From Candidatus Omnitrophota bacterium (GTDB taxonomy: Bacteria > Omnitrophota > Gorgyraeia > 1-14-0-20-64-10): a stretch of DNA of 64,000 nucleotides. The notes below the pieces were generated by a model that saw only the letters and a program-made list of their open reading frames with translations, did no database searches and had not been told where the DNA came from. Positions within the stretch are counted from its first letter, which is position 1, and the number at the start of each line of letters is the position of its first letter. Positions 46,749 through 62,527 of this stretch are shown here, one piece after another. The DNA lies in assembly GCA_023818695.1 (NCBI GenBank), contig JAMWCF010000001.1, positions 467,306 through 531,305 of the forward strand. The letters run 5' to 3'. A program made the position numbers and the translations under genes.

Positions 46749-48695
46749 TTATCCGGAAATGGATTCGGTCTCTCCGGCAGATTCTTGTTTTAACTCCGAG
46801 GGAGGCCCTTGCATCACGATCCGCTTCGCTTCGTCCCCGTCGATGACCTCTTTTTCCAAGAGAGTCTCTGCCAGCTTTTCGAGACGGTCTTTGTACTGGG
46901 CGACGATCGCCTTCGCCTGCTTGTGGGCATCCTCGACGATCCGGCGGATCTCCTGGTCGATCAGAACGGCGGTCTGGTCCGAGTAGTTCTTCTCCTCCAC
47001 GATGTCCCGCCCCAGGAAAACCATCCCTTCCCGCCGCCCGTAGGTCAAAGCCCCGAGACTGTCACTCATCCCGTAGCGGGTCACCATCTGGCGCGCCGTC
47101 TCCGTCGCCACCTCCAGGTCGTTCTGGGCGCCGGTGGTGATCTCGCTGAAAATCAGCTCCTCTGCCGCCCGTCCTCCCAGCATGACGGCCAGCTTCGCCA
47201 AAAGCTCCTTGCGGGTGGTGATGTACCGGTCCTCCAGCGGCATCTGCATCGTATAGCCCAGCGCCGCCGCCCCGCGGGGGATGATCGATATCTTGTGGAC
47301 AGGATCGGTCCCCGGTACCATGATCGACACCAGGGCGTGGCCGGCCTCGTGATACGCTACGATCTTCTTCTCATAAGGGGAGATCACGCGGGATTTCCGT
47401 TCCGGTCCGGCCATCACCCGCTCGATCGCCTCCTCCATCTCCTTCATGGTCACCGTCTCCTTGTCCCGGCGGGCGGCCAGCAGGGCCGCCTCGTTGGCCA
47501 GGTTGGCCAGATCCGCTCCGGAGAAACCGGGCGTCTGGCGAGCAATCGATTTCAGGTCGACGGCGGGATCCAGCTTGACCTTCCGGACATGGACCTTTAG
47601 GATCTCCTCCCGGCCGACCAGGTCCGGCCGGTCCACGACGATCTGACGGTCAAACCGGCCGGGCCGCAGAAGAGCCGGATCCAGAACGTCCGGCCGGTTG
47701 GTGGCAGCCAGAAGGATCACCCCCTCCTGGGTGTTGAAGCCATCCATCTCGACCAAAAGGGCGTTGAGGGTTTGCTCCCTTTCATCGTGGCCGCCGCCGA
47801 TGCCGGCAAACCGCTGGCGGCCGACCGCGTCAATCTCGTCAATGAAGATGATGCACCCCCGGGTGGAGGTCTTGGCCGACTTCTTCGCCTGTTCGAAGAG
47901 GTCCCGCACACGGGAAGCCCCCACGCCGACGAACATCTCCACGAAGTCGGAACCGCTGATCGAAAAGAATGGCACCCCCGCCTCCCCGGCCACCGCTTTG
48001 GCCAGCAAGGTTTTCCCGCAGCCAGGCGGACCCAGCAGGAGAACCCCTTTAGGGATCTTCCCTCCCAGCTTCTGGAATTTCTTCGGGTCCTTCAGGAATT
48101 CAATGACCTCCTGGAGCTCCTCCTTGGCCTCCCGGACCCCGGCCACATCCTCGAAAGTGACCTTCTTCCCCTCCTCCTCCGGCAAAACCTCCTTGGCCCG
48201 GCTCTTGCCGAAAGAGAGCAATCGTCCGCCCCCTCCCTGCGCTCCCCGGTAAAGGAGGAACCAGAAGGCGCCGAGGAACAGGAAAGGCCCTGCCAGGTTG
48301 AAAAGGAAATTCAACCAGAAGGACCCTTTGGCCGACTCCACACGGAAATCGGGAACTTTTTCCCTCAAGAGGCGGATCATGTCCGGGTCCTGCTGGGGTA
48401 TCACCACTTCAAAACGCTTGCGGTCGAACGTCTCGCCCCGGATCAGGTTGTCCATCAGAACGACGGTGCGGATCCTCTGGGCGGTGTCGTTGTTGGCAAC
48501 CCAGGAATAGAACTCGCTGTAGGAGATCTCCTGCGGGACCCCCTTCATGGTCAGGGCCCCGAACCAGTACATGTAGAAGAGAACAAAAAAGATCCCCCCA
48601 AACACAAACCACCGGAACATCCTCTGATTCGGTCTGTTCGGAGGAGTCGGCGGTGCGGACGGCAACGGCGTTTTTCCACCTTCAAGTGTCGGCAT
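46749..48695 (-). CDS. ftsH: ATP-dependent zinc metalloprotease FtsH
   Basis: GPPGCGKT Walker A, an AAA second-region-of-homology (SRH) motif, and HEAGHA zinc site. Confidence 0.97.
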
Positions 48696-48752
48696 ACTTT
48701 TCCCTTTTTAAGACAATGATTGAGTCTACCAGATTCTGGGATTGAATTCAGC

Positions 48753-48766
48753 TTATTTCCGTCGAA
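48753..48766. repeat. Flanking direct repeat (target-site-duplication-like), left copy
   Basis: ttatttccgtcgaa here versus ttattcccgtcgaa at 61502-61515 (13 of 14 identical). It copies the last codons and stop of tilS. Confidence 0.6.
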
Positions 48767-49285
48767 GTGTCAAACCAAAATAGAAATGTCTGGTTTTAAT
48801 GCTTTGCTTTAAGGTTTGAAGCTCTGGAGAGTTAAGGGGCTGGGTTAGCTTCATCGTTACACGCACATCTTTTTTCGCCACGGATGATCTGCCGCCGGCT
48901 TGCGGGCCATCTGCGGGAAGAACCGGCTGATCGTCCAGATGAACGACTCCGGCTTAGCCTTGGGCTGAATCGGAATCGGCCGATAGGCCAGCTCCTTGCC
49001 CTCATGCAAAACACGCATCCGGCCCTGGGGACTGATCGTCACCGCCACCCCCTGCTTGGCCAAGGGACGTAGATCAGACGGCCACACCTGCCGCGTGCTC
49101 AACTCCACAAGCGGCTGCCTCAACCTGCGTCGTCTGCTTCTTTAAGACCGCTTCAAGAACTGGAAGCCTTCGAAGCTCCTTCTGGCTCATCGTGACAACG
49201 TCCTCGTTCATAATACCCTCCTGTCTTCCAACAAGAGGACATTTTTACTTTGGTAGAACCGGACATTCTCACTTTGGTATTACAC
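48767..49285 (-). mobile_element. Internally deleted IS derivative (ISNCY/rve-type transposase remnant), copy 1
   Basis: 48775-49285 is identical by eye to 60991-61501, and the track ORFs are identical at an offset of 12216. Imperfect terminal inverted repeats: gtgtcaaaccaaaatagaaatgtctgg versus the reverse complement of ccggacattctcactttggtattacac. Encodes only an HTH N-terminus (MSQKELRRLPVLEAVLKKQTTQVEAA), a frameshift, then a C-terminal tail (...VLHEGKELAYRPI...ADHPWRKK). Confidence 0.8.
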
Positions 49286-49315
49286 AACTTCCAGAACTTC
49301 TGTTCTGTCGGTGGC

Positions 49316-51109
49316 TTATCGGTTCTGTGGGCCGGGGAGGATGCTGAGGAGATAATCCTGGCTGGCGGGCTTAACGAGGAAGCCGTCGGCCCCCATCTCC
49401 TTGGCTTTCTCGCGGTACTCGGGAAAATCGCAGGCGGTGATCAGGAAGACGGGCCTCTCGGGGAAGATTCTCTTTGCCTCCTGAAGAATACCGAAGCCAT
49501 CCGGGGAAACCCCTGTGGATCCGTCGCCCCTGAGGAGGATTTCCGAAAGGATGACATCGGGCTGATGCTCCTTGAGAAGCGCCAACGCTTGCGGCCCGCT
49601 GGTGGCCGTCCAACACGTGATGCCTCGCGCCTCGAAGATGAGGCGTACGGTTTCCAGGGTTTCTTTCTCGGAGTCTACGATCAGGATGCTGGCCGCCGAG
49701 GGGGCTTTCCTTGCTGGCCTGGGAAGTTCATCGGAAATCACCGATGGCCTCGCCGCCTGTGGGGAGGCCGGAAGGTCCGACTGCCGCAGCGGGAACGTGA
49801 GGGTCACGGTGGTGCCAGCCCCCACCTGGCTCTCCACCTGGATCGCCGCATTGTGGGCCCTCAGGATGTTCTGGACGATGGCCAACCCCAGGCCGGAACC
49901 TTTTTCCTTCGTGGTGTAGAACGGGGCGAAGATGAGCGGGATCTGGTTCTCCGGGATGCCGGATCCGGTGTCGCGGACCTTGACGACCAAGGCCTTCTCG
50001 TTGGGGAAGGCAACGATGTCCAGGAGGCCCGGTTTCTCGCCAGGGGGTGACATCGCCTCGATGGCGTTGTTGAACAAGTTCAGGAACACCTGCTTCATCT
50101 GATCCCGGTCTGCCTCGACGGTAACACCGTTGGGGCTGTAGCCCTTTCGCACCTCGATGTGGCTGCGGTCCAGATCGTTCTCCAGCAGGGCCAGCACGCT
50201 GTCGATCGTTCCGCTGATCTCGATCGGCTTGAAGTCCGGCGCCTTGGGTCTGGAATACACCATGAGCTGCCGGACCAGGTCGTTGATCCGCTCCGCCTCC
50301 GCCTGGGCAAGCTTGGCGAAGCGGTTGCGGAAATCCGGGTCATCGTATTTCTCCGGCAGCATCTCGAAGAAGCCAAGGATCGCCTGCAGGGGATTCTTGA
50401 TCTCATGGGCCATGTCGGCGGCGAACTTGCCGATCGTTCCCATCCGCTCGGAGTGGAGCAGCTGATCGCGGGTGTCGCGCAGTTCCTCGTAGGCCTGGGC
50501 GTTCTCGATCGCCCAGGCCGCCTGGGAAGCCAGCGCGGAGAAGATGGCCAGGTCGTCCTGATCGTACAGGTCGCCGGTGAGTTTCTCACCGAGGACGAGG
50601 AAACCCTGCAGCTTGCCCTCCCTGAAACTGGGAACGCAGACGGCGGCCTGCAAGCGTTCCATCTCCCAGAGTGCGCGTTTGAGCGCGGGGATTTCCTTGT
50701 GCTCCTTGCTCCTGGGTCGTCGCTTGGGCTCCGCTGGGTGTTCCTCCTTCAGCTCGTTATAGACGAGCGGTTCCTTGCACTGGGTGAGGAGAGTAACCAG
50801 AGCCGACGACTCCTCGATGCAGAGTTCGCCAACCGGCTTGCGGAATTTGCCGTGGGAGGTGGCGACAGTGAAGCCGGGTTCAGTCTTGTTTCTGAGGAAA
50901 ATCGTGACGTGGGCGGCCCGCGTATTGCTGGCGGTCACCCGGGCGATGAGGTTGAGCAGCCGCGGCAGGTTCCGGATCCGGGTCATCCCGAGGCTAGCGG
51001 CTCTCAAGATTTCCTGGTAGCGCCGCCGCTGCCGGGAGAGTAACCGGTGCCGCAGCCGCCGGCGGAACCGGCGGAGCCGTTGAGTCAGACTGGCCAGAGG
51101 ATGGGGCAC
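49316..51109 (-). CDS. Hybrid sensor histidine kinase: GAF-HisKA-HATPase_c plus a C-terminal receiver-like domain
   Basis: H-box FAADMAHEIKNPL, N-box LFNNAIEAM, G-boxes VRDTGSGIP and GSGLGLAIV. The C-terminal REC-like domain has DVILSEILL where LLD is expected. Confidence 0.9.
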   Translation of the reverse strand: MPHPLASLTQRLRRFRRRLRHRLLSRQRRRYQEILRAASLGMTRIRNLPRLLNLIARVTASNTRAAHVTIFLRNKTEPGFTVATSHGKFRKPVGELCIEESSALVTLLTQCKEPLVYNELKEEHPAEPKRRPRSKEHKEIPALKRALWEMERLQAAVCVPSFREGKLQGFLVLGEKLTGDLYDQDDLAIFSALASQAAWAIENAQAYEELRDTRDQLLHSERMGTIGKFAADMAHEIKNPLQAILGFFEMLPEKYDDPDFRNRFAKLAQAEAERINDLVRQLMVYSRPKAPDFKPIEISGTIDSVLALLENDLDRSHIEVRKGYSPNGVTVEADRDQMKQVFLNLFNNAIEAMSPPGEKPGLLDIVAFPNEKALVVKVRDTGSGIPENQIPLIFAPFYTTKEKGSGLGLAIVQNILRAHNAAIQVESQVGAGTTVTLTFPLRQSDLPASPQAARPSVISDELPRPARKAPSAASILIVDSEKETLETVRLIFEARGITCWTATSGPQALALLKEHQPDVILSEILLRGDGSTGVSPDGFGILQEAKRIFPERPVFLITACDFPEYREKAKEMGADGFLVKPASQDYLLSILPGPQNR

Positions 51110-51123
51110 GGCTCCCTCCGGGT

Positions 51124-51495
51124 TCAGGCCTTTCCGGAATCAAGGAGGGCCCGGACCTGGGTCAGGATCTTCTGCTGCCGAAACGGCTTGGTGATGTAGT
51201 CGTCGGCCCCGAGGTTGATCGCCTCGGTGGCCACGTCGGTGGCCTCGTAGCCGGTGATGATGACGACCCGGACGCCGGGCTTGAGCTCCTTGATCCTGCG
51301 CAGCGCCTCCAGTCCGTTCATCTTCGGCATCTTGATGTCCATGATCGCTATGGCGGGGTCGTTGGCCCTGACGTGCTCGACCGCCTCCTCGCCGTTGGCC
51401 GCGAAGGAGAGCTCGTACTCGCCGCCCAGCATGTGCTTCAGGGTTTCCCGGACTCCCTCCTCGTCGTCGCAGATCAGGATGTTCGCCTTCTTCAT
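51124..51495 (-). CDS. Single-domain response regulator (CheY-like, canonical residues)
   Basis: ILICDDEE, AIMDIKMPKMNG, VIITG and ITKP. Confidence 0.9.
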   Translation of the reverse strand: MKKANILICDDEEGVRETLKHMLGGEYELSFAANGEEAVEHVRANDPAIAIMDIKMPKMNGLEALRRIKELKPGVRVVIITGYEATDVATEAINLGADDYITKPFRQQKILTQVRALLDSGKA

Positions 51496-51509
51496 CGTTC
51501 CCTCCGTCG

Positions 51510-52064
51510 TTAGAGCACAACCGGATTGGTGACGGAGATGAGCTTCGCCACGTGCCGGTTGGCGTTCGAGAGATGGTGGGGCATTGAGGCGTCCAGGTAC
51601 AGAGTGCTGCCCTGGGAGATCCGGTAGCTCTCCTCACCCACCCTCACGTCCACATCGCCCTCCAAACCGAAGAGCCACCGCTCGGTCCCCCTGGGGTATT
51701 GCTCCCTCGCCGTCTTTCCGCCGGGCTGGAGGACAATCATCTGCGGCAGCATGTGCTTCCTGGACACCTGGGTGGTCAGAAGGATCGCAGAGGCCTTCTC
51801 GTCGTAGGTGTAGGTCTGCGCCCCTTGGGCCTTGGATTCCAGATACGCCGCTCCCTGGGGTGGCGCCTCCAGGCCCCGGTACAGCTCCGCCACACTGACC
51901 TTCAGGGCTTCTGCGATCTTCTCGATCGTCCTGGCGTTCCCTCCGCCCTTCCCGTTCTCGATGCGGCTCAAGGAGCCGACAGCGACGCCGCTTCGCCTGG
52001 CCAGCTCCCCTATGGCAAGACCCTGCTCCTTCCTGAGTGCCCGGATGCGGGCTCCGAGATCCAT
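51510..52064 (-). CDS. XRE-family HTH transcriptional regulator with C-terminal cupin domain
   Basis: IRALRKEQGLAIGELARRSGVAVGSLSRIENG HTH, with a cupin-like C-terminus (LYLDASMPHHLSN). Confidence 0.85.
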   Translation of the reverse strand: MDLGARIRALRKEQGLAIGELARRSGVAVGSLSRIENGKGGGNARTIEKIAEALKVSVAELYRGLEAPPQGAAYLESKAQGAQTYTYDEKASAILLTTQVSRKHMLPQMIVLQPGGKTAREQYPRGTERWLFGLEGDVDVRVGEESYRISQGSTLYLDASMPHHLSNANRHVAKLISVTNPVVL

Positions 52065-52174
52065 GTTTCACCCCCTTCCGCTCATCCTGAATCGTACTAC
52101 AAAAACGCGAACTTTTCAAAGTGAATCGTCCTCTTTATGAATCATACGCCACTGTCCTGAAGCGTTATATTTAC

Positions 52175-52201
52175 ACAAGTATATATAAATAAATATCTTG
52201 T
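52175..52201. promoter_or_regulatory. Inverted repeat ACAAG-N17-CTTGT in an AT-rich divergent control region (candidate operator)
   Basis: acaagtatatataaataaatatcttgt lies about 110 nt upstream of the XRE-cupin gene. It overlaps a minus-strand TTTATA-N17-TATACT promoter-like pair. Confidence 0.35.
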
Positions 52202-52250
52202 ATAAAATATTCTGTGCCGGAACCATTCAAACAAATATGTGAAATTAATA

Positions 52251-52280
52251 TTGACAAATATTTGAACTATGTGGCATACT
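52251..52280 (+). promoter_or_regulatory. Sigma70-type promoter candidate for the only plus-strand island genes
   Basis: TTGACA, an 18-nt spacer, then CATACT. Confidence 0.4.
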
Positions 52281-52310
52281 CCCCAGTGAGAACATGAAAG
52301 GGACTCCCCG

Positions 52311-52472
52311 ATGTTCAGACGGTGGTACCTCTACTGGCGATGGCTACGGATCAAACGGGTGAAGGTGGGCAGAGCCATTGAGGTGGAACTACCCAGATTC
52401 TCCCGGATGAGCGAATACGCCGCCGGCGACAACTTCCCGGTTCTGTCCAGAACGCTGGTCAGGGCCGAGTAA
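52311..52472 (+). CDS. Possible small ORF (53 aa, Trp/Arg-rich N-terminus)
   Basis: Hand translation gives MFRRWYLYWRWLRIKRVKVGRAIEVELPRFSRMSEYAAGDNFPVLSRTLVRAE. Third codon positions are mostly G/C. No family recognised and no clear SD. Confidence 0.25.
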   Translation: MFRRWYLYWRWLRIKRVKVGRAIEVELPRFSRMSEYAAGDNFPVLSRTLVRAE

Positions 52473-52622
52473 GATTCCGATCAGGGCAAACCCGACGTAA
52501 GAAGCGGGGGCGCAAAGCCGAGGTTCCGCCTCAAACCAGGGGCGGGAGGCCGGGCTGCCGGAATCCATGTGATTCAGGCAGCCCAGCTTTGTCTTCTTCA
52601 TGGGAGGGAGGTGAGAGTCCGT

Positions 52623-52979
52623 ATGGATCGTCAAATGATGGTGAACCTGATCCGAAACGAGGTGGTCGAGAACCCCAAAGGCAAGACCCGGTTCTGGCTC
52701 GTCCGCTGTTTCGAGATCACCGTGCGCCCCGATCGCGTGGTGGAGCTGGATGAGTATGAGGCGTACGAGGTGTGCGAGGGGAAGAACGGCATCGAGGCCT
52801 GCAGCGACCCCTGCGCTGACCTCCGGAGTCTGGCCGGCATGTTCCACGTCGGCCGCAGCGTGATCCACCTGAACGACGGGCGGGTCATCGAGGAGCCATC
52901 CGGCAGAGGCCTGATCAGCGCCAACGGCAGCCGGCCTGAAGTAAAGCAGCAATCTCGGCCGGCCCCAGTTACCGTTTGA
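52623..52979 (+). CDS. Hypothetical protein (118 aa)
   Basis: Strong SD (GGGAGGGAGGTGAGAG) ending 6 nt before the ATG at 52623. Third positions are strongly G/C in this frame, whereas the overlapping minus-strand ORFs look like antisense artefacts. Confidence 0.65.
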   Translation: MDRQMMVNLIRNEVVENPKGKTRFWLVRCFEITVRPDRVVELDEYEAYEVCEGKNGIEACSDPCADLRSLAGMFHVGRSVIHLNDGRVIEEPSGRGLISANGSRPEVKQQSRPAPVTV

Positions 52980-53790
52980 CCAGGTCGTGCTCCAGGGCCG
53001 TTTGGCGAACCAGCGCCATGAAGGCCTGCAGGTCGCCGTCCTTCCACAGGTTGCCCTGCCATTTCTTGGCCGGCAGCAGGTTCAGCAGCCGATCCTCCTC
53101 AGCGTTGGGGTGCATGTAGAGGATGTAGTCCTTCGGCTGACTCGGGCAGTCCAGCAGTTTGCGGATCGCTTCGCCCGGCTCGTTGACCGTCATGGCGTCC
53201 AGCAGGACGATGTCCGGCTGAAGGGCGGTCATGGCCATGACCGCTTGTTCCACATTCGCGGCGTGTTCCACCTTGTAGACCCCTTTGGCCTGGCTGGCGT
53301 CGCCAAGGTGTCTGAGCAGAATGCTGGCGACCGACTCGAACGGCTCGATGAGCAACAGTAGCGCCAGCGGCTCGCCAGGGGAGGCATCCTGAAGTTTCAT
53401 GCCCATCGTTATCTTCTTCAGTTCATCCTCGTCCTTGCGCGTTAGCAGGCGGTCGGCGAATTCGATCAGCTTGTCGGTGGCAAACGGTTTGGTGAAGAAG
53501 GCGTCGCAGCCCAGGGCCCGTACGGCCCGCTCACGCTCCGGGTAGGCGGTCAGCACGATCACCTTAACCTGAGGGGCTTTGGTTTTCACCCGCTTGAGCA
53601 CCTCTTCGCCCGGCAGGCCCGGCATGTGGAGGTCCAGAATCATGAGGTCGGCCGGCTGCCTCGCCAGGATCGCCAGCGCCTCATCCCCCGAGGCCGCGCG
53701 CTGCACCTGGTAGCCCTTCTCCAGGAAAAACTGGGAGAGCACCGAGGTCAGCCGATCCTCGTCGTCCACCAGCAGAATCCGGAACTCCAT
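52969..53790 (-). CDS. Response regulator: canonical REC plus a second degenerate REC-like domain plus a conserved C-terminal helix (paralog 1, intact)
   Basis: ILLVDDED, LMILDLHMPG, VLTA and FTKP. The second half has LLLIEP...DIVLLDAM. The C-terminus is WQGNLWKDGDLQAFMALVRQTALEHDLVKR. Confidence 0.85.
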   Translation of the reverse strand: MEFRILLVDDEDRLTSVLSQFFLEKGYQVQRAASGDEALAILARQPADLMILDLHMPGLPGEEVLKRVKTKAPQVKVIVLTAYPERERAVRALGCDAFFTKPFATDKLIEFADRLLTRKDEDELKKITMGMKLQDASPGEPLALLLLIEPFESVASILLRHLGDASQAKGVYKVEHAANVEQAVMAMTALQPDIVLLDAMTVNEPGEAIRKLLDCPSQPKDYILYMHPNAEEDRLLNLLPAKKWQGNLWKDGDLQAFMALVRQTALEHDLVKR

Positions 53791-53803
53791 CGCGTCGCCC
53801 CCT

Positions 53804-54178
53804 CTACGCCTTCGGCCCGCCGAGCTTCTTCATGAATTCCAGGAGCTTCTCGGGCGGGATCGGTTTGATGGGATAGTCGTCCGCTCCCAATTGCTTGGCC
53901 TTGGCCTGCTTCTCCTCATCAGGGAAGCCGGTGATCATGACGACGTGGGCGACGGGGTGGAGCCTCTTGGCCTCCCGGAGGATGCCGAAACCGTCCATGG
54001 GGCTGTTGTTCAGCTGGACGTCCAGCAGCACGAGGTCCGGCTTGTGTTCCGCGACGATCTTCAGAGCCGCGGTGCTCTCGCCGGCCGTCCAGCAGGTGGC
54101 CCCGTTCATCTCGAAGAGCATCTTCACGACGGTGTCGGCCGCGACCTCCTCGTCGTCAACGACCAGTACGCTCGACAT
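53804..54178 (-). CDS. Single-domain response regulator (CheY-like, canonical residues)
   Basis: VLVVDDEE, LVLLDVQL, MITG and IKP. Confidence 0.9.
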   Translation of the reverse strand: MSSVLVVDDEEVAADTVVKMLFEMNGATCWTAGESTAALKIVAEHKPDLVLLDVQLNNSPMDGFGILREAKRLHPVAHVVMITGFPDEEKQAKAKQLGADDYPIKPIPPEKLLEFMKKLGGPKA

Positions 54179-54497
54179 TCGTCATCCTCTGCTCCAAGTA
54201 TCGCAGCAGATCCGCCACCGTCAACAGTTTTTCCGCCTCCTCGTCCGTGATCTCGATACCGAACTGCTCCTCCACCGCCATCACGAGCTCGACGGCGTCC
54301 AGCGAGTCGATACCCAGGTCCTTCACGAAGTCGGCCTGCGGCGTGATGCCGTTGGGATAGACGCCCAGCTGCTTGGTCAGGATGTCATGCACCTTGGGCC
54401 ACAGGCTCGCACGGAAAACGACGGGCGGCTCCGGGACCTTATGCCAGGGCAGCCGCTGGGAGATCCACTGGCCCATCAGCTTAAGTCGCGTCCCCAT
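54156..54497 (-). CDS. Acyl carrier protein-like protein with ~30-aa N-terminal extension
   Basis: DFVKDLGIDSLDAVELVMAVEEQFGIEITDEEA carries the DSL phosphopantetheine-attachment motif. Confidence 0.8.
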   Translation of the reverse strand: MGTRLKLMGQWISQRLPWHKVPEPPVVFRASLWPKVHDILTKQLGVYPNGITPQADFVKDLGIDSLDAVELVMAVEEQFGIEITDEEAEKLLTVADLLRYLEQRMTNVERTGR

Positions 54498-54578
54498 GGG
54501 TTCTCACTGCACCACCAGGCGATGCTCCAGCGCCGTCCTGCCGATGAGCTGTACCAGCGTCCCCAAGGACTCCTCAGT

Positions 54579-55262
54579 TCAGGGGTCGCCGACCCATCGC
54601 TTACCCGGCACGGAGTCCAGCAGGTGCCGGTTCCTGTCGCCGGCATGCATGAAGAAGACATAGTCCCTGGGCTGAGTCTCGCAGGCGAGCAACCGCTGCA
54701 CCACCTCATCGGGATGGTGCTGCGAGGAGAGAAGCGAGAGATCCGCGACCACGAGATGCGGCTTGTGATCCGCCAGGAGTTTGAGGGCGTGCTCGAGCTG
54801 GGCGGTCCTGAGGATGAAGTACATACCTTCCGCCACCAGCGGATCCCGCAGGAGGCGCATCAGCGCGCGGGTGAGCCCGAGGTCCGGCTCCAGGAGCAGG
54901 ACGTCTGCCCTGGGCCACTCCCTCGCCGGCCCGCCGGATTCCGCCAGCCCGGGCAGGATCTGCTGGACTTCCTCGGCGTCTTTCTCGAGCAGGAACATGC
55001 ACATCGCCTCGACCATCGGCTCCCGAGCCAGGGGCTTTGGCAGTAAGCGGTCGCAGCCGACGGCCCGGAGCTCCCGTTCCTGATCCGGCTCAGCACCTAG
55101 CGCCAGGACCTTTGCCAGGGGCGCATCGGCCCGGACCCGCCGGATCAATGTCAAACCGGAGGGGCCTAGCGTCTCCAGATTGAGGACGAGCAGATCCAGC
55201 TTCGCCCAGCTGAGGATCTGCTCGGCTTCCTCCACGCCGACGATCAGGATCTTGAATTCCAA
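54579..55262 (-). CDS. Degenerate REC-pseudoREC protein (paralog 2); reading frame continues past an in-frame TGA to 54504
   Basis: ILIVGVEE and LLVLNLE replace the DD and D sites. It ends ...GKRWVGDP-TGA. The next 24 in-frame codons encode TEESLGTLVQLIGRTALEHRLVVQ, homologous to the paralog C-termini. Confidence 0.75.
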   Translation of the reverse strand: MEFKILIVGVEEAEQILSWAKLDLLVLNLETLGPSGLTLIRRVRADAPLAKVLALGAEPDQERELRAVGCDRLLPKPLAREPMVEAMCMFLLEKDAEEVQQILPGLAESGGPAREWPRADVLLLEPDLGLTRALMRLLRDPLVAEGMYFILRTAQLEHALKLLADHKPHLVVADLSLLSSQHHPDEVVQRLLACETQPRDYVFFMHAGDRNRHLLDSVPGKRWVGDP

Positions 55263-56104
55263 CGGCCCCTCCTACCGTTTGACCAGCCCGTGCTCCAGGG
55301 CCGTCTTGCGGATGAGCTCCCCAGGGTTTCCAGCTCTCTCTCTTTCCAGGGGTTACCCTGCCAATGCTTGAATGAGAGGGTGTTCAAGACCTGCTGCCGC
55401 TCTGGCGGCAGCGGCCTGTGGAAGTAGAACAGGTAGTCCTTCGGCTGATACTCGCAACTCGTGAGTTGCTTGACGGCATCCGCCGGTGCCGGGACGGTCA
55501 GGAGATCCACCATGACCAGATCCGGGCGCATAGCGAAAAGCACTGTCATCGCCTGCGACAGGTCGTCTGCCCAGCTAAAATGATAGGTGCCGTAGCCTCT
55601 GCCCGGTTCGGGGTGACGCAGGAAATAGATGATGGGTGCGGCGATGTCCTTGACCGGTTCCAGGATCAGGATGTCGGCCAGCGGCTCGCCGGGTGAAGCC
55701 TGCTCCAACTCCTCCGGCATGGTGACCGTCTTGAGCTCCTCCTCATCCTTGCGGGTGAGCAGCGAATCCACTGTGCGGACCAGGCGCTCCATGGCGAATG
55801 GCTTCTGGACGAAGGCGTCGTAGCCGAGGGGTTTCACCTCGTTCTCCCGCTCGGGGAAGGCGGTCACGACGACCACCCGGGTCTGGGGCGCCTTCGCGCG
55901 GATGTGCCTCAGGACATCCGCCCCGGAGAGGCCCGGCATCTGCAGGTCCAGCAGCACCAAGTCCGCCGGCTGCCGGTCGAAGGCCTCCACCGCCTCCTCC
56001 CCGGAGAGCGCCTGCGACACCAGATAACCCTTCTCGAAGAAGATCTCCGTCAGCGTCGAGACGAGACTCTCCTCATCGTCCACCACCAGAATCCGGAACT
56101 CCAT
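55244..56104 (-). CDS. Response regulator REC plus pseudoREC (paralog 3), C-terminus apparently frameshifted
   Basis: ILVVDDEE, LVLLDLQMPG, VVTA and VQKP. After ...WKERELETLG the conserved tail ELIRKTALEHGLVKR-stop (stop at 55272) lies in another frame. Confidence 0.8.
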   Translation of the reverse strand: MEFRILVVDDEESLVSTLTEIFFEKGYLVSQALSGEEAVEAFDRQPADLVLLDLQMPGLSGADVLRHIRAKAPQTRVVVVTAFPERENEVKPLGYDAFVQKPFAMERLVRTVDSLLTRKDEEELKTVTMPEELEQASPGEPLADILILEPVKDIAAPIIYFLRHPEPGRGYGTYHFSWADDLSQAMTVLFAMRPDLVMVDLLTVPAPADAVKQLTSCEYQPKDYLFYFHRPLPPERQQVLNTLSFKHWQGNPWKERELETLGSSSARRPWSTGWSNGRRGRWNSRS

Positions 56105-56500
56105 CTACCCTCCCTTCTTCTTCCGCTCCAGCTCCAGGGCCCCCTCCTGGATCTTCGCCAGGATCTGCTCCATCGGCATCGGCTTGACCAGGTAGTCCCG
56201 GGCGCCTAAGGCCACCGCCTTGTCCCGGAACTCTTGGTCGTCGAACCCGGTGAAGATGTAAACCATCAGGTCCGGGTTCGCCGCCTTGGCCTCCCGGAAC
56301 ACCCGGAACCCGCTCATGTCCGGCAGATCGAGGTTCAGCAGCATCATGTCCGGGCGCTCCTTCTGGGCCAGGGCGATCCCCTCGGCCCCCTTCAGGGCCG
56401 TCACCACATCGAACCCGCCGTAGTCCCGGAACAGCATCTCGACCGTCTGGGCGGTGTCCGGCTCGTTCTCCACGATCAGGATCTTGATCTTATGCGGCAT
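56105..56500 (-). CDS. Single-domain pseudo-receiver (phospho-acceptor Asp replaced by Asn)
   Basis: ILIVENEP and DMMLLNLDLPDMSG align to DD and LLD-L-P-M-G. IFTG and VKP are retained. Confidence 0.8.
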   Translation of the reverse strand: MPHKIKILIVENEPDTAQTVEMLFRDYGGFDVVTALKGAEGIALAQKERPDMMLLNLDLPDMSGFRVFREAKAANPDLMVYIFTGFDDQEFRDKAVALGARDYLVKPMPMEQILAKIQEGALELERKKKGG

Positions 56501-58739
56501 GGCTCGCCTTGTCCTCTTTCAGGGCTGGCAACTGGATGGTGCAGCGGGTCCCCTTGCCGTACTCCGACTCCATGAAAATCCGCCCGCCGTGGGCCATGAG
56601 AATCCGCTTGATGTAGAAAAGCCCCAGCCCATGACCACCGGGCCCCATCCCCTGAGAGGATCCCTTCGTCGTAAAGAGTGGCACAAAAATCTTCTTCTTC
56701 TTGTCCGGCTCTTTGATTCCGATCCCGTTGTCCTCGACGGTGATGATGACTTTGCCGTTCTCCTCCTGCGCCTTCACCACCACCCGCCCGTGGTAGGGCT
56801 CCGGCGGTTCGGGCAGCGCCTTCAGCCGCATCTTGCGGATCCGCTCCTCGACGGCGTCCACCGCGTTGTCGATCACGTTCATGATCGAGTCGTGGATCTG
56901 CGCCGAGTTGCAGGAGATCCTCGGCAGGTTGGTGGAAATCCCGTTGACGATCTCCGGCACCTCCGCCTCCTCCACCACCTTGCCGCGGGCGTGTTTGAAG
57001 CGCACAAACTCGATGGCATCCTGGACCATCGGCAAGATCTCCGCCTGCTGGAACTCGGCCGGGATCGTCTTTGCCAGGCTCATGACTCCCTTGGCGATCT
57101 CGCCGGCCCGGGCGCACTCCTTGCGGATCGACTCGAAGGCCCGCAAAACCCGCGTCAGTCTGGTCAGGTCGAACTCCCCCTTCTTGAGAACCTGCCCCAG
57201 CCAAGACATCGCCTGCCAGCAGAGGTTCTCGATCACCTGGATCCGGTTGCTGTATTGGTGCGAGACGGCGCCGGAAATGTCCAGGGCCATCTGGTCGCGC
57301 TCCCGCTCGACCACCTTTTGCTCCTCCGCCTCGTGAAACCGGGCGTTCTCGATGGCCAGCGCCGCCTGGTTGGCCAGCACCATGAGGAGGTTCAGGTCAT
57401 CCTGCGTCCAGATCCGGCCCGCGCGCTTGTCGCCCAACACGAGGAACCCCAGGAACCGGCGCTGGTGGAAGGCCGGGATCATCACGGAGGCCTTGAACAA
57501 GTCCATCTCCCGGGCCATCTCCCGCCAGTTGGCCGAGAGGGCTTGCTGGTGCAGCCGCAATTCCTCCTTGACTCGTGGGATCCTGACCGTGGAGAGATCC
57601 TTGGCCAGGGTCGAAGTAGCCGCCAGAGCGTCCGGCAGAAAGGAATCCTTCCGGGGTGGGTGATAGCGGCTGGCCTTCTGCCGGTACCGGCCGTCATTGC
57701 CTTCCATCAGGTAGATTGCTGCATGCGAGATGTTCAGGACTGTGACGAGCCGGCGGACGATCTGTTTCAGCAGCGTTTTCTCCCGAAGGAACCGCATCAT
57801 GTCCTGCGAGATGAACCTGAGGTCCTCGTGGGCCTTGTGCTCCTCGGCGAGGAGAAGATTCTCGGTTCTCTTCTGGAAGTACTGGTTGACGTAATGGGCC
57901 GCTGTAGTAAAGATAGCGCATGCAAACCATAACCCTACCCACCAGTTGACTCCGAATGCCTGCTCGAGCTTCGGACGCCATTCAAGAGCGACGAGGAGAG
58001 GCAAGCCCAAAGTGAAAGCATAGACCAGCGCAAAAACCCATGTGCGCCTGATGGCCAAGTTGATGTCCATGAGGCGATGCCGCGTGATGGCGTAGAAAAT
58101 TACGGAGAAAGAAGCCAGGATAAAGAAAGCGCCAATGGGATAGAAATTCATGCCGTAGTTGATGAGGAACTCGATTGCGGAACAACAGAAGAGGATAAAT
58201 GCTATCCACGTAAATTTGGCTTGATTGTGCTTGGTGGCCGTTCTTTGCCCGGAACCTGCCCTCACGGCTACAGTCAGCATCCAAAGGAGGCGCCCAAGCG
58301 TTGCAGCAACGAATAGAACGAGAAGAGGGTGAAGAAACCCGGCCTTCCCATATATTCCCCAGCTGAAAGTATGGTAACCGTCGACGATAAGATCGGTACT
58401 CCACAAGAGAAGGAAAAACAAACCGCTGAAGGTGTAGAGAATCCTCACCACTCGCCCGTCTCGGAGGCGCCATCGGTCCAAGAAATGAGTGACGAAGTGA
58501 AGCGCCGTTACCGGCAAAACAACGATGGATGAGAAGGCAACCCTGACTATTAGTTGCTGCTGTGGGTCTGTAACCAAGAAGTAAGATGCGAACCAGCAGG
58601 CCTGCCAGATGAAGAATTCCAAACACATCAGGGCAAATGTTCGGTTGGATGGGGAATAGCGATTTCGGCTGAAAACCAGGAAAGTGAGGAAGAGGGCTGT
58701 TAGACTTGTGGCGAGTGGCGGGAGAACGTAAAAGGACAT
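56490..58739 (-). CDS. Membrane sensor histidine kinase: N-terminal 7-TM domain, GAF, DHp, HATPase_c
   Basis: About seven hydrophobic helices in the first ~290 aa. GAF region (FLGFLVLGDKRAGRIWTQDDLNLLMVLANQAALAIENA). N-box NVIDNAVDA and G-boxes VEDNGIGI and GLGLFYIKRIL. The H-box is atypical (AVSHQYSN). Confidence 0.88.
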   Translation of the reverse strand: MSFYVLPPLATSLTALFLTFLVFSRNRYSPSNRTFALMCLEFFIWQACWFASYFLVTDPQQQLIVRVAFSSIVVLPVTALHFVTHFLDRWRLRDGRVVRILYTFSGLFFLLLWSTDLIVDGYHTFSWGIYGKAGFLHPLLVLFVAATLGRLLWMLTVAVRAGSGQRTATKHNQAKFTWIAFILFCCSAIEFLINYGMNFYPIGAFFILASFSVIFYAITRHRLMDINLAIRRTWVFALVYAFTLGLPLLVALEWRPKLEQAFGVNWWVGLWFACAIFTTAAHYVNQYFQKRTENLLLAEEHKAHEDLRFISQDMMRFLREKTLLKQIVRRLVTVLNISHAAIYLMEGNDGRYRQKASRYHPPRKDSFLPDALAATSTLAKDLSTVRIPRVKEELRLHQQALSANWREMAREMDLFKASVMIPAFHQRRFLGFLVLGDKRAGRIWTQDDLNLLMVLANQAALAIENARFHEAEEQKVVERERDQMALDISGAVSHQYSNRIQVIENLCWQAMSWLGQVLKKGEFDLTRLTRVLRAFESIRKECARAGEIAKGVMSLAKTIPAEFQQAEILPMVQDAIEFVRFKHARGKVVEEAEVPEIVNGISTNLPRISCNSAQIHDSIMNVIDNAVDAVEERIRKMRLKALPEPPEPYHGRVVVKAQEENGKVIITVEDNGIGIKEPDKKKKIFVPLFTTKGSSQGMGPGGHGLGLFYIKRILMAHGGRIFMESEYGKGTRCTIQLPALKEDKASHAA

Positions 58740-58786
58740 TTTATTCGTCAGAAGTCACGGCCACTCGCATAAACGTGACTTCGGGG

Positions 58787-58942
58787 TCAATACCGTAGTA
58801 CCATTCCACCCATAGTAAATTCCGCTCCATAGGCCAATGCAAAAACCGTGTCGACTCGTTTAATCCTGCCCTCCCGAGCTGCCTCATCCAAATAGACCGG
58901 CATCTCTGCCGACACGAGGTTACCGTATTTCGAGGGCGAATT
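58787..58942 (-). pseudogene. Remnant of a second KAS III-like gene (C-terminal ~50 codons only)
   Basis: In frame directly after the TAA at 58943-58945: NSPSKYGNLVSAEMPVYLDEAAREGRIKRVDTVFALAYGAEFTMGGMVLRY-stop. This parallels the upstream gene's FSRYGNLVSAELPVLLDENMRAGRIKRGQLVLMFTYGAGFTSACAVVRL. Confidence 0.7.
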
Positions 58943-60298
58943 TTAAAGCCTGACTACTGCACAGGCACTGGTGAACCCCGCACCATATGTGAACATGAGC
59001 ACTAGTTGCCCCCGTTTAATTCGACCGGCGCGCATGTTCTCGTCCAACAAGACGGGAAGTTCTGCCGACACGAGATTTCCGTAGCGGGAGAAGTTTTCCA
59101 CCACCTTGTTCTGAGGTACTCCTAAAAGGCCGAGGGAGTACTCAAACAAGAACTTGCTCGGGTAATGCAGAAGGAAGACGTCTATGTCACCGATGGAAAC
59201 CCGTGCTTTCCGAAGCGTCCTGTTAACAAAGGGGATCAGGTGTCGGTCCATTACTTGAAAGAACTCTTCCCGGGCCGGGTTCATGTAGAAATAGCCTTTG
59301 TATTCGTCAGGAATTCCCGGTGGGGTGACGGTCCACGGCAGAGGAGCAAAAATGTGTGTTCCGTATTCCCCTCTGTTCCATAGTTCGCAGGCGAGGATGT
59401 CGCCCTCGCCTGAGGAATCCGCTTCGAGCAGAATGCCACCCGCTCCGTCTCCAAAAATAGCCCTGTGCATCAAGCTTTTAAACGGAAGAGACGAACCTAC
59501 TGTGCTAGCGGCGAGAACCAGAATCGCTTTGTGCCCACCCGCGATGTATCGGCGTGCGATGTCCACCGCACAAAGCCACCCAGAACAAGACATGTTAATC
59601 TCGAAGGCTGGGCAGTGTGCCCCGATCCTGACTTGTACCGTACTTCCCACATCGGGGGCTACTGCATCTCCGGGATTCACTGCACAAATGATCATGTCTA
59701 TGGTCGAGGGGTGCCGTTTCGCCTTGGTCAGGATCGCCTTGGCCACTTCGGCCATCATGCTTGAAGCATTTTGGCCTGGCTGTACGCTCCGCCTCTCAAT
59801 AGCCCCCAACGCACGCTGAATAGTTAAATCTGTGGATTTCAGTCCGTTTGCAATGATGTGGTCGTTCGTTACAATCTTATCGGGAAGAAAGCTGGCGGTG
59901 TGCGCTATCCTTGCAGTTACAGTGCGCCGACCAAAATCCCGCGTGTCCGCCGGGCCACGCGCACCCATAACGAGTTTCGCCACGATGTCTGATCCCGATT
60001 CGAGTATCCGGGAGAACTGGATTCCAGTGAGGTACCCGGAGGCAAAATTCTCAGAAGGTATACCGTTCACGTGATATTGCCAAACAACCACGCCCTCGGC
60101 TTCCACAATCTGAGTGGGGCTGGTTTGTATTTTAAGATTGAGATAACTCTCCTTCGGGAGACTTCTGGGGAGAATGGCGCTTACGCCCCCTTGGCTGAGG
60201 TCCCAAGTAGTGCCCGAACAAGGCTTCTCTGGTGCGCCCTTAAAGACACACGTAACCGGCAGTGCCGTTTTTACTCGACCGACGTGGCGACGTTCCAT
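58943..60298 (-). CDS. PilZ domain fused to a 3-oxoacyl-ACP synthase III (FabH/KAS III-like) domain
   Basis: N-terminal RRHVGR (RxxxR) and DLSQGG (DxSxxG) with ...VVVWQ...GIQF. The C-terminal ~330 aa is thiolase-fold with a candidate Cys-His-Asn triad (NMSCSGW, LLHYPSK, YGNLVSAE). Confidence 0.8.
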   Translation of the reverse strand: MERRHVGRVKTALPVTCVFKGAPEKPCSGTTWDLSQGGVSAILPRSLPKESYLNLKIQTSPTQIVEAEGVVVWQYHVNGIPSENFASGYLTGIQFSRILESGSDIVAKLVMGARGPADTRDFGRRTVTARIAHTASFLPDKIVTNDHIIANGLKSTDLTIQRALGAIERRSVQPGQNASSMMAEVAKAILTKAKRHPSTIDMIICAVNPGDAVAPDVGSTVQVRIGAHCPAFEINMSCSGWLCAVDIARRYIAGGHKAILVLAASTVGSSLPFKSLMHRAIFGDGAGGILLEADSSGEGDILACELWNRGEYGTHIFAPLPWTVTPPGIPDEYKGYFYMNPAREEFFQVMDRHLIPFVNRTLRKARVSIGDIDVFLLHYPSKFLFEYSLGLLGVPQNKVVENFSRYGNLVSAELPVLLDENMRAGRIKRGQLVLMFTYGAGFTSACAVVRL

Positions 60299-60304
60299 TC
60301 TGTT

Positions 60305-60568
60305 CTACCCCGGTTTGTTGCCGCTTAAGTGCCGCTGCAAGAAGTCGATAGTATCTTGGACGGTCACCAGCCTCATGGCTTCATCATCTGGAATTTTGAT
60401 GCCGAACGCTTCCTCTAATTTCATCACCAGCTCAATCCGCTGAAGGGAGTCCGCTCCCAGGTCCTCTGCGATTTTTTTCTCTGGAAGTACTTCTTCCACC
60501 TTAACCTTCAATTCTTCCGAGAGGGTCACTCTGGCCTTCTCGGCTATTTGAGAGGCAGTTAGCACCAT
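60305..60568 (-). CDS. Acyl carrier protein
   Basis: EDLGADSLQRIELVMKLEEAFGIKIPDDEA (DSL motif); 87 aa. Ends 6 nt before the PilZ-KASIII start. Confidence 0.88.
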   Translation of the reverse strand: MVLTASQIAEKARVTLSEELKVKVEEVLPEKKIAEDLGADSLQRIELVMKLEEAFGIKIPDDEAMRLVTVQDTIDFLQRHLSGNKPG

Positions 60569-60630
60569 TTCACTCTCTCGAGCACATCCGGTTCCATGCC
60601 CACCGATGAAGAACGAAAGCTATAAAGAGC

Positions 60631-60654
60631 AAAAACGGCCGGACACATCCGGCC
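60631..60654 (-). terminator. Rho-independent terminator after the HTH gene
   Basis: Minus strand reads GGCCGGA-TGTG-TCCGGCC followed by GTTTTTGCTCTTT, starting 2 nt after the TGA stop. Confidence 0.7.
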
Positions 60655-60656
60655 AC

Positions 60657-60935
60657 TCATGAGTTCTGTCCTCTCTTGGACTTTTTCAGGCGCTTCTTTG
60701 CGGTCAACCCGCTTGCTTTGGTGTAGGTTTTATCGAGAAACTGGTCCACCGCCCGTCGCACCGCCCGGCTCTTTGGCGACCTACCGTACTTGAGCCAACG
60801 GTAGACGGACATCGAATGGACACCGATCTCATGGCCCAGCTCATCGTAGCTAAGCCCTCGGCGCTTTTTGATTTCCCGAAGTTTTTCGATCTGATCGACT
60901 GACACATTATGGGAGTGTAGCAAAAGCATACACAA
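60657..60935 (-). CDS. Small HTH DNA-binding protein (XRE or transposase-OrfA-like)
   Basis: RRGLSYDELGHEIGVHSMSVYRWLKYG helix-turn-helix with a basic C-terminus. Lies adjacent to the IS end. Confidence 0.7.
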   Translation of the reverse strand: MCMLLLHSHNVSVDQIEKLREIKKRRGLSYDELGHEIGVHSMSVYRWLKYGRSPKSRAVRRAVDQFLDKTYTKASGLTAKKRLKKSKRGQNS

Positions 60936-60957
60936 AAGTCAAACTTTCTCAGTCTCG

Positions 60958-61501
60958 CTGTCAAACCAAAACAGAAATGTCCGGTATTCCCCAAAATAGA
61001 AATGTCTGGTTTTAATGCTTTGCTTTAAGGTTTGAAGCTCTGGAGAGTTAAGGGGCTGGGTTAGCTTCATCGTTACACGCACATCTTTTTTCGCCACGGA
61101 TGATCTGCCGCCGGCTTGCGGGCCATCTGCGGGAAGAACCGGCTGATCGTCCAGATGAACGACTCCGGCTTAGCCTTGGGCTGAATCGGAATCGGCCGAT
61201 AGGCCAGCTCCTTGCCCTCATGCAAAACACGCATCCGGCCCTGGGGACTGATCGTCACCGCCACCCCCTGCTTGGCCAAGGGACGTAGATCAGACGGCCA
61301 CACCTGCCGCGTGCTCAACTCCACAAGCGGCTGCCTCAACCTGCGTCGTCTGCTTCTTTAAGACCGCTTCAAGAACTGGAAGCCTTCGAAGCTCCTTCTG
61401 GCTCATCGTGACAACGTCCTCGTTCATAATACCCTCCTGTCTTCCAACAAGAGGACATTTTTACTTTGGTAGAACCGGACATTCTCACTTTGGTATTACA
61501 C
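60958..61501 (-). mobile_element. Internally deleted IS derivative, copy 2 (complete ~50-bp left terminal repeat)
   Basis: Identical to copy 1 over 511 bp. Its left end carries two tandem ~20-bp motifs (ccaaaacagaaatgtccgg and ccaaaatagaaatgtctgg) that mirror the two at the right end. Copy 1 lacks 25 bp here. Confidence 0.8.
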
Positions 61502-61515
61502 TTATTCCCGTCGAA
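61502..61515. repeat. Flanking direct repeat (target-site-duplication-like), right copy; equals the tilS 3' end
   Basis: ttattcccgtcgaa abuts the IS end. Its reverse complement is TTCGACGGGAATAA, the last tilS codons plus TAA. Confidence 0.6.
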
Positions 61516-62527
61516 GAACCAGCCGGCCTTTCGGATCAATCTCCGCCCGGAACCGATGCGGCAGGTCTAGGGGGCCCTTCCTCTTGCCATCCGCCAGATG
61601 ATTCAGAGAAACCCAATGGCGGTGCCGGAAACCGCTGCGGTCCCCCTGCAAACGGGCTACCCCGTGGCGCAGGATCCCCATCCGCAGGCCGGCCGGAACC
61701 GACAGGAGGGCCCTCCTGTCGAAGTGGACTGCCCCGGAACCCACGCGGGCACTCCTTTTAAACTGCCGGGCCGCCTCCTCCTGCAGCCAGCCGAAATCCT
61801 CCCGCACGATATCGGCCAGCTGTGCTAGATGGTACCGCAGGGATCCGCTGTACCGGCGCTCCAGAAAAGGGATCAGCTCCCGGCGGACCCTGTTCCTGAA
61901 GAACCGAGTCGACCGGTTCGACCGGTCTTCCCTCGGCCGGATTTTCCTCTCTTTCAAAAAGTTCGCAATCTCTTTTTTCGTCGAGCTGATCATCGGCCGG
62001 ATAATCCGCAGTCCCCTCGAATGGCCGTTGTTCTGCCCGTTGACGGACCTCACCGGCGGAATCCCCATCAACCCGGTCGTCCCGGTCCCCCGAAGCAGCC
62101 ACATCAGCACCGTCTCCGCCTGATCGTCCAGGGTGTGCCCCACGGCGATCACCCGGCACCTTGTGCGCCTAGCCAGCGCCGTGAGGGCCTCGTACCTAGC
62201 CCGGCGGGCCGTCTCTTCCGGAGAAATCCCCGGCTGCTTCTTGACCCTCCGACGCAGAACAGTCACCGGAATTCCAAGCCGCTTGCCAAGGGAGCGGACG
62301 AATCGCTCTTCCCTTTTCGCGGCCGACGGGCGCAGCCCGTGGTTCACATAAGCGGCGGCGAGGGAGAGCCGCAGCACCCCCCTTAACTCCGAGAGGAGAA
62401 TCAGCAAGGCGGTCGAATCCGGCCCGCCGGAAACCGCCGCCAGAACCCTCTCTCTGGGCTTGAGCATCTCAAACCGTTCGATCGTTGCCCTGACTTTCTC
62501 GATCAGCATAGCTCCATCATAGGCCAA
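61502..62527 (-). CDS. tilS: tRNA(Ile)-lysidine synthase
   Basis: PP-loop [11 protein letters not shown]; 341 aa. Confidence 0.9.

Follow-up and report, generated by a model that had tools for sequence, protein, structure and literature searches.

We analysed a 64,000-nucleotide stretch of a Candidatus Omnitrophota genome (assembly GCA_023818695.1, contig JAMWCF010000001.1, positions 467,306 to 531,305; hereafter the window) and found a 12.7-kb insertion between the genes tilS and ftsH. The insertion is a composite unit of 12,733 bp (48768-61500) in which two directly oriented remnants of an insertion sequence (IS) enclose a block of accessory genes, and a single 16-bp target-site duplication lies at its outer ends. 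By their sequence features, both remnants are internal-deletion derivatives of an IS1202-family (ISNCY) element. We consider it somewhat probable that the unit reached its present site through a single transposase-mediated event acting on the outer ends, whether by transposition of the composite or by fusion of a circle, the two routes being taken jointly.

Boundaries and structure of the flanking copies

A gapless repeat search and pairwise alignment within the window showed that positions 48775-49285 and 60991-61501 do not differ at a single base over 511 bp. A base-by-base comparison thus agrees with an earlier, sequence-only reading of this DNA, which had described two direct repeats with an identical 511-bp core. 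Seven further bases ahead of the core, TGTCAAA, are also common to both repeats, and the sole difference between them is a 25-bp subterminal unit that the right copy has and the left lacks. Both repeats lie in direct orientation, starting with TGTCAA and ending with ATTACA. Similarity to a related element found in a different assembly (L082) breaks off directly outside the TGT, and 5'-TGT and ACA-3' are the outermost bases characteristic of the IS1202 family (PMC10132070). On these two grounds the boundaries were placed at the TGT...ACA tips, refining the left remnant to 48768-49284 (517 bp) and the right remnant to 60959-61500 (542 bp), both on the minus strand. The terminal inverted repeats, described earlier as imperfect, are identical at 19 of 26 positions in both copies.

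Read on the minus strand, each copy opens with TGTAATACC and carries a pair of units spaced by about 25 nt (CCAAAGTGAGAATGTCCGG and CCAAAGTAAAAATGTCC). A ribosome-binding site comes next, then 45 codons of a helix-turn-helix (HTH) region, a frameshift, approximately 65 codons of a C-terminal tail, two more units and finally TTGACA. The right copy retains both subterminal units at both ends, at 25-nt spacing (CCAAAACAGAAATGTCCGG / CCAAAATAGAAATGTCTGG and CCAAAGTGAGAATGTCCGG / CCAAAGTAAAAATGTCC), whilst one of the two units at the low-coordinate end of the left copy is deleted. The doubled-unit layout likewise occurs in the related elements L082, L083, L168 and L169, the Paracoccus, A. caldus and Ralstonia elements included. 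Because the doubled unit is a family feature and is seen in these relatives, we read the 25-bp difference as loss of a unit from the left copy and not as an insertion into the right.

The tip distal to the transposase start presents TTGACA facing outward (48768-48773 and 60959-60964), as does the right end of the A. caldus megaplasmid element (L168). The proximal tip is TGTAAT, which as a -10 element would be without the usual A at the second position.

Transposase remnants and relationship to the IS1202 family

The coding remnants were compared with a profile built from 12 full-length proteins, obtained from an exhaustive search with P0002, the nearest N-terminal relative. The N-terminal HTH matched profile positions 2-42 of 428 (E=6e-13), and the C-terminal tail, which includes a conserved ADHPWRKK motif, matched positions 348-411 (E=2.7e-9). 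Alone, the tail was unrecognised by Pfam and NCBIfam; it was the custom profile that matched it. Some 305 codons are absent from each copy, the whole DDE catalytic core among them, and a frameshift lies between the remaining parts. These results bear out the sequence-only reading on two counts: the transposase survives as an HTH N-terminus, a frameshift and a C-terminal tail, and neither copy is able to encode a transposase, the entire DDE core having been deleted. A length of about 1.45 kb is expected for the parent element.

P0002 is a partial protein that is 77% identical to the remnant and matches the ISNCY family transposase model of NCBIfam (NF033594, E=7.6e-22). The exhaustive search with it recovered relatives that were 40-66% identical over the 103-aa N-terminal query and were mostly fragments. 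In all 12 full-length relatives, the sequence GR(V/I)E is followed by six residues, then Q (at E+7), and then D and R. A glutamine seven residues after the catalytic glutamate is the hallmark of the IS1202 family, whose large DDE transposases measure 394-507 aa (Harmer, Pong & Hall 2023, PMC10132070). Members of the family possess inverted repeats with 15-25 matches over 22-29 bp, together with an additional internal transposase-binding site near each end (PMC10132070). They fall into subgroups with target duplications of 5-6, 16-17 or 27-28 bp; a 16-17 bp duplication has been reported for 67 elements, and also for ISCARN53/62/63, ISTde1 and others, and this ISTde1 subgroup is found in many environmental phyla (PMC10132070; 10.1101/2022.12.17.520857). 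In their tips, inverted repeats and internal binding sites the two copies correspond to this description, as does the pair in its class of duplication. The 16-bp duplication fits the ISTde1 subgroup, an assignment made from the duplication length of one insertion and not from transposase phylogeny.

We also attempted to read the duplication length in plasmid-borne relatives. The A. caldus element showed no duplication, and that of the Ralstonia element was 5 bp (TGAGT), which places it in another subgroup. On the Ralstonia megaplasmid (L169, approximately 370-2130), two different IS1202-family elements stand in tandem, the first of which is flanked by TGAGT as described for the ISAba32 subgroup.

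A single target-site duplication spans the pair

The outer ends of the pair abut a 16-bp duplication, CTTATTTCCGTCGAAG on the left (48752-48767) and CTTATTCCCGTCGAAG on the right (61501-61516). Fifteen of the 16 positions match, the exception being 48758 (T), which corresponds to a C at 61507. At positions fixed by the tips, 15 or more matches in 16 would arise by chance with a probability of about 1e-8. The sequence-only reading had noticed a 14-mer with one mismatch; the repeat and its mismatch stand, and the length is corrected to 16 bp. That the right flanking repeat represents the last tilS codons plus the stop was also correct: it holds the tilS stop codon, TAA, as the reverse complement of 61502-61504.

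When the flanks of both copies were compared, no individual duplication was found around either one, and the sole duplication spans the pair. With a duplication at the outer ends only and neither copy possessing its own, the structure is composite-transposon-like, as had been proposed. The inner flanks CAACTTCCAGAACTTC and ACTTTCTCAGTCTCGC were considered as a second duplication and rejected, since they match only with several gaps.

The unit is a derived insertion at the tilS-ftsH junction

A search for TilS relatives covered 185,579 species genomes together with the JGI metagenomes; the best were Omnitrophota-type metagenome-assembled genomes (MAGs) at 43-55% identity. Junctions were counted at 21 Omnitrophota-like loci whose sequence continues for 500 nt or more past tilS, several of these loci being identical or near-identical to one another. 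In 20 of the 21 close relatives the ftsH start lies 26-174 nt after the tilS match, and in more distant relatives ftsH is found 0.5-1.7 kb downstream of tilS. The 16-mer is absent from the tilS-ftsH junctions of all the close relatives and so is not a conserved intergenic motif. Since tilS runs directly into ftsH in 20 of 21 relatives and none of them has the 16-mer, the 12.7-kb unit is a derived insertion at an ancestral tilS-ftsH junction, in line with the original proposal. It is cleanly intergenic: 1 nt separates it from the tilS stop, and a promoter-like motif lies between it and ftsH. Its removal restores the predicted order of tilS stop, gap and ftsH start, with a spacing from stop to ATG of 56 nt in place of the approximately 70 nt first suggested.

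Both flanking genes are intact. Upstream of the insertion, tilS (61502-62509, minus strand; Pfam ATP_bind_3, E=9e-50) encodes 335 aa and is complete to the last residue: the exact protein, with its ATG at 62509, is on record, and relatives align over residues 1-335. Downstream, ftsH (46749-48695, minus strand; Pfam Peptidase_M41, AAA and FtsH_ext) is complete at 648 aa; its product is 70-83% identical to the FtsH of Omnitrophota relatives, whose N-termini match its own MPTLEGGK. Between the left duplication and ftsH lies an extended -10-like motif, TGGTAGACT (48723-48731, minus strand), as a putative ftsH promoter. All 20 relatives have the pattern TGnTAnAnT between tilS and ftsH, versus 1.3% of random 260-nt window segments, with a consensus of about ATCTGGTAnACTA across the junctions of L002-L011 and L085-L097, and the motif is a probable promoter of ftsH. 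A scan for consensus promoters and terminators around the left copy returned nothing above the shuffled expectation. An insertion between these two essential genes can be tolerated because tilS is complete and the conserved promoter-like motif still precedes ftsH.

At the remaining locus (L095, 1364-1951; TilS 47% identical), tilS and the promoter-like motif are followed by an XRE-type HTH gene in place of ftsH, on a contig that breaks off after 587 nt; here the spacer may have received a further insertion, independent of the present one. In L005, L006, L009 and L010 about 1.2 kb interrupts the ftsH match, as an intein or other in-gene insertion would. A radical-SAM gene upstream of tilS in the present organism (L001, 7866-9935) gives a Pfam Intein_splicing match.

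Origin of the composite unit

The arrangement would be explained if a pair of deletion derivatives of one IS1202-family element, non-autonomous and in direct orientation, had come to bracket the 11.7-kb cargo, and if a single transposase-catalysed event had then used the two outermost ends. Either the composite would have transposed whole, or a cargo circle with one copy would have undergone replicative fusion, which leads to the same product. A staggered cut 16 bp apart, 1 nt past the tilS stop, would upon repair have generated the 16-bp duplication. Since both copies are without the DDE core, we infer that the transposase was supplied in trans by a full-length element, and the sequence-only reading had likewise held that any mobility would need such a source. 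The left copy would afterwards have lost one 25-bp binding-site unit. We favour one transposase event on account of the family-typical duplication length, the identity of the copies and the lack of a duplication at the inner flanks. No intact parent was found in the window or in the database, which includes the proteins of this MAG, and the structure may therefore be immobile at present. For ISKpn21, which belongs to another IS1202 subgroup, circular IS forms have been described that suggest a copy-out-paste-in pathway.

Several observations weigh against a single transposase event. One mismatch in the duplication contrasts with zero substitutions in the 511-bp cores, a combination with a best-case probability of about 0.01 if neutral rates are equal; gene conversion between the copies, an error during insertion repair or strain polymorphism would account for it. 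Furthermore, no intact parent transposase was recovered. The window contains none, a word-index search with the remnant returned its own 88-aa open reading frame (ORF) and one partial, 77%-identical protein, and a word-index search with P0002 returned no full-length parent. The protein database searched with the remnant includes proteins of the same MAG, and no cognate transposase was found in cis or in trans, although the MAG may be incomplete. Neither a same-species empty site nor a second copy of the whole unit was found: scans for TilS across the genome and metagenome collections gave no relative above 55% identity, and the nearest relatives are only about 50% identical in this protein. 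The transposition mechanism of the IS1202 family is, moreover, little studied.

A final point of this kind concerns the assembly. Logan contigs of SRR27730039 match the window with zero mismatches and stop 30 nt into the shared core, L165 corresponding to 49256-61020 and L001 starting at 61472. At the right copy, L001 reproduces the junction with tilS and L165 that with the cargo; in all, independent Logan contigs bear out three junctions out of four, the exception being that between ftsH and the left copy. Exact-protein look-ups for FtsH from three alternative starts, one of them wrongly placed, and for the 88-aa remnant ORF gave no match, and as those for FtsH were empty, the ftsH-side junction has no confirmation independent of the MAG. 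Because the short-read contigs stop 30 nt into each repeat, the order of tilS, copy, cargo, copy and ftsH is read from the MAG contig only.

Homologous recombination of a circle into a resident copy is a clearly less probable explanation of the structure, though not a remote one. A solo remnant would first have inserted with a 16-bp duplication, and a circle carrying the cargo and one copy would later have recombined within the 511-bp core. This sequence of events gives exactly the observed structure and requires no transposase action on the 12.7-kb unit. It also explains the 25-bp difference, with a resident one-unit copy beside ftsH and an incoming two-unit copy beside the cargo, and the cargo is itself a mosaic, with a 3' remnant of a ketoacyl-ACP synthase III (KASIII) gene at a joint and distinct compositional blocks (see below). 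However, the inner flanks show no duplication, so that the circle would not have held a simply inserted copy; it would have been without replication or transfer genes, and its source is unexplained. The zero divergence of the cores would in any case make both copies very recent. Whichever of these routes was taken, the transposase would have acted in trans.

We judge it improbable that the order is an artefact in which the assembler walked twice through a collapsed 511-bp node, one remnant lying between tilS and ftsH and the cargo with its own copy residing elsewhere or on a 12.2-kb circle. The ends of the Logan contigs, 30 nt into the core, do indicate one collapsed node with two entries and two exits, for which both resolutions are Eulerian, and a solo insertion would account for the 16-bp duplication equally well. 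On the other hand, a 12.2-kb circle without any replication gene is an implausible replicon, and no third or fourth unique flank leading into the repeat was seen. Additionally, the protein collection lists the 88-aa remnant ORF from a single contig, and the 697-kb MAG contig runs through both copies, for which assemblers normally need read-pair or long-read support. The Logan contigs of the cargo and of tilS each recur in three samples.

That the cluster is ancestral at this site and was later flanked by two separate insertions of the element is very improbable: all the cargo except one small transcription unit is indeed co-directional with tilS and ftsH, and a homologous module does exist in a related MAG, but tilS is followed directly by ftsH in 20 of 21 relatives, the related module adjoins neither gene, independent insertions would each have brought their own duplication whereas only one is found, spanning the pair, and the inclusion of the tilS stop in the 16-mer means that the end of tilS and the region upstream of ftsH were contiguous at the time of insertion.

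Gene content of the cargo

The 11,674 bp between the copies had been described as a cluster of signalling, acyl carrier protein (ACP) and KASIII genes, and domain searches of the encoded proteins agree. No integrase or recombinase domain was found among them and the target is the tilS/ftsH spacer, unlike in integrase-type genomic islands, which have an integrase gene and a tRNA or att-type target.

At the right end of the cargo are genes for an ACP (87 aa) and a small XRE-type HTH protein (60305-60935, minus strand), preceded by a promoter-like site consisting of TTGACT (60937-60942), N14 and TGCTACACT (60914-60922). Next is a PilZ-KASIII (FabH-like) fusion of 451 aa (58943-60298, minus strand; Pfam PilZ, ACP_syn_III and ACP_syn_III_C; NCBIfam FabH subfamily, E=1.7e-55), in which the Cys/His/Asn catalytic positions appear to be present. 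We found 211 relatives of this protein, mostly metagenomic, and many of the top-scoring ones possess the same fusion. No paper linking PilZ with KASIII was found in the literature collection searched. Like the 88-aa remnant ORF, the fusion protein is deposited under a MAG named Candidatus Omnitrophica bacterium, on a 697-kb contig. In frame right after the stop of the fusion gene lies the 3' remnant of a second KASIII gene, YGNLVSAEMPVYLDEAAREGRIKR... (58787-58927, minus strand; direct repeat D12). It is followed by a gene for a seven-transmembrane (7TM)-GAF histidine kinase of 749 aa (56490-58739, minus strand; Pfam HisKA_7TM, GAF and HATPase_c).

The region 52969-56500 (minus strand) encodes five receiver-domain proteins (273, 124, 227, 286 and 131 aa) and a second ACP (113 aa). 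It contains an old internal duplication of about 2.3 kb, evident from the repeat families D2, D4 and D16 at spacings of 2303-2319 nt. Three of the receiver proteins (52969-53790, 54579-55262 and 55244-56104, minus strand) have C-terminal halves of about 140-175 aa without a Pfam match, and two of these three are paralogues derived from the internal duplication.

A short stretch on the plus strand comprises a 53-aa ORF (52311-52472) and a 118-aa ORF (52623-52979), neither with a Pfam match, and between them a cyclic di-GMP (c-di-GMP)-I riboswitch aptamer (52475-52562). The aptamer scores 46.3 bits against Rfam RF01051, compared with a gathering score of 35, and covers the full-length model (1-87). 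Upstream of the 53-aa ORF is an AT-rich divergent promoter region (52065-52310). The remaining genes, on the minus strand, encode a single-domain response regulator (123 aa) and an XRE-HTH/cupin regulator (184 aa) at 51124-52064, together with the hybrid histidine kinase HK597 (597 aa; 49316-51109; GAF-HisKA-HATPase-receiver by Pfam). The cargo holds seven receiver domains in total, one of which is that of the hybrid GAF kinase HK597. Judged from domain content, the combination of the PilZ-KASIII fusion, two ACPs and the riboswitch suggests c-di-GMP-controlled acyl chemistry.

Composition and origin of the cargo

The overall G+C content of the cargo is equal to that of its flanks. Its tetranucleotide profile correlates with the rest of the window at 0.897, as against 0.951-0.979 for 13 chunks of the same size. 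The G+C content at third codon positions (GC3) is 0.82-0.95 in the block from HK597 to the 131-aa receiver protein (RR131) and 0.58-0.65 for the PilZ-KASIII, ACP and HTH genes; the 32 ORFs outside the cargo range from 0.52 to 0.80. The KASIII 3' remnant (58787-58927) coincides with the jump in GC3 between the cargo blocks and therefore marks an internal recombination joint, making the cargo itself a recombination mosaic. A homologous module is present in a related MAG, away from tilS and ftsH, with a PilZ-KASIII protein (60% identical), a 7TM-GAF kinase (34%), an ACP (48%) and a receiver protein. Gene sets of this type thus occur in this bacterial group, and the present one is not obviously foreign to it.

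Discussion

In the classical composite transposons Tn5, Tn9 and Tn10, direct or inverted IS copies flank the cargo with the target duplication outside, and at least one of the IS copies possesses an active transposase. The present unit differs in that neither flanking IS encodes one. Unresolved cointegrates, as formed by the IS26/IS6 family or by Tn7 without TnsA, also leave two identical direct copies around donor DNA with the duplication outside. The IS1202-family transposase is TnsB-like, with no TnsA partner encoded; in the present unit, however, there is no evidence of a replicative pathway.

There is a close likeness in anatomy to the ISTde1 subgroup of the IS1202 family, whose named members include ISTde1, ISCARN53/62/63, ISShha1 and ISVbsp4 (PMC10132070; Siguier et al. 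2022, 10.1101/2022.12.17.520857). Common to both are the TGT...ACA tips, imperfect inverted repeats of about 26 bp, a second internal binding site at each end, the 16-bp duplication, and an HTH and C-terminal tail homologous to ISNCY/IS1202-type proteins in which the DDE signature has Q at E+7. The difference is that both copies here measure only 517-542 bp and are without the catalytic core, the full-length parent not having been found in our searches. Composite or miniature (MITE) derivatives of the IS1202 family are unmentioned in the text of either account (PMC10132070; 10.1101/2022.12.17.520857), and the main text of the preprint does not list Omnitrophota as a host (10.1101/2022.12.17.520857).

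A precedent from another family is provided by TIME-COMPs, composite-like units bounded by two non-autonomous miniature elements derived from Tn3, for which trap-plasmid experiments have demonstrated mobilisation of the intervening DNA (Szuplewska et al. 2014, PMC4133298; Gomi & Yano 2026, PMC13367494). As in the Omnitrophota unit, two transposase-less copies enclose unrelated genes, one duplication lies outside, and a transposase is needed in trans. TIME-COMPs differ in belonging to the Tn3 family, with 5-6 bp duplications and 38-bp repeats, and the mobility of the present unit is deduced from one insertion.

We also considered a bolder and rather doubtful idea, namely that the 16-17 bp duplication of the ISTde1 subgroup is tied to promoter geometry. 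Copy-out would form a circle in which the abutted ends keep one copy of the flank between them, and this junction would create a near-consensus promoter, TTGACA-N16/17-TGTAAT, driving the transposase. If this were true, the unit would be the first IS1202-family case of a large cargo mobilised as a whole, the cargo being a c-di-GMP-sensing acyl/two-component module and the host a member of a candidate phylum.

The composite unit at tilS-ftsH represents a known type of mobile structure in well-preserved form; it reveals no new mechanism and does not overturn current understanding. Omnitrophota are known almost only from metagenomes, and here a cleanly delimited insertion of accessory genes in this group has had its donor element family and its target site resolved to the base. 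The recently defined IS1202 family is extended to miniature, non-autonomous derivatives and to a composite-type structure with a 16-bp duplication. The value of the unit thus lies in a documented example and in the lead offered by its cargo, which may be a portable module that connects c-di-GMP with acyl or lipid chemistry.

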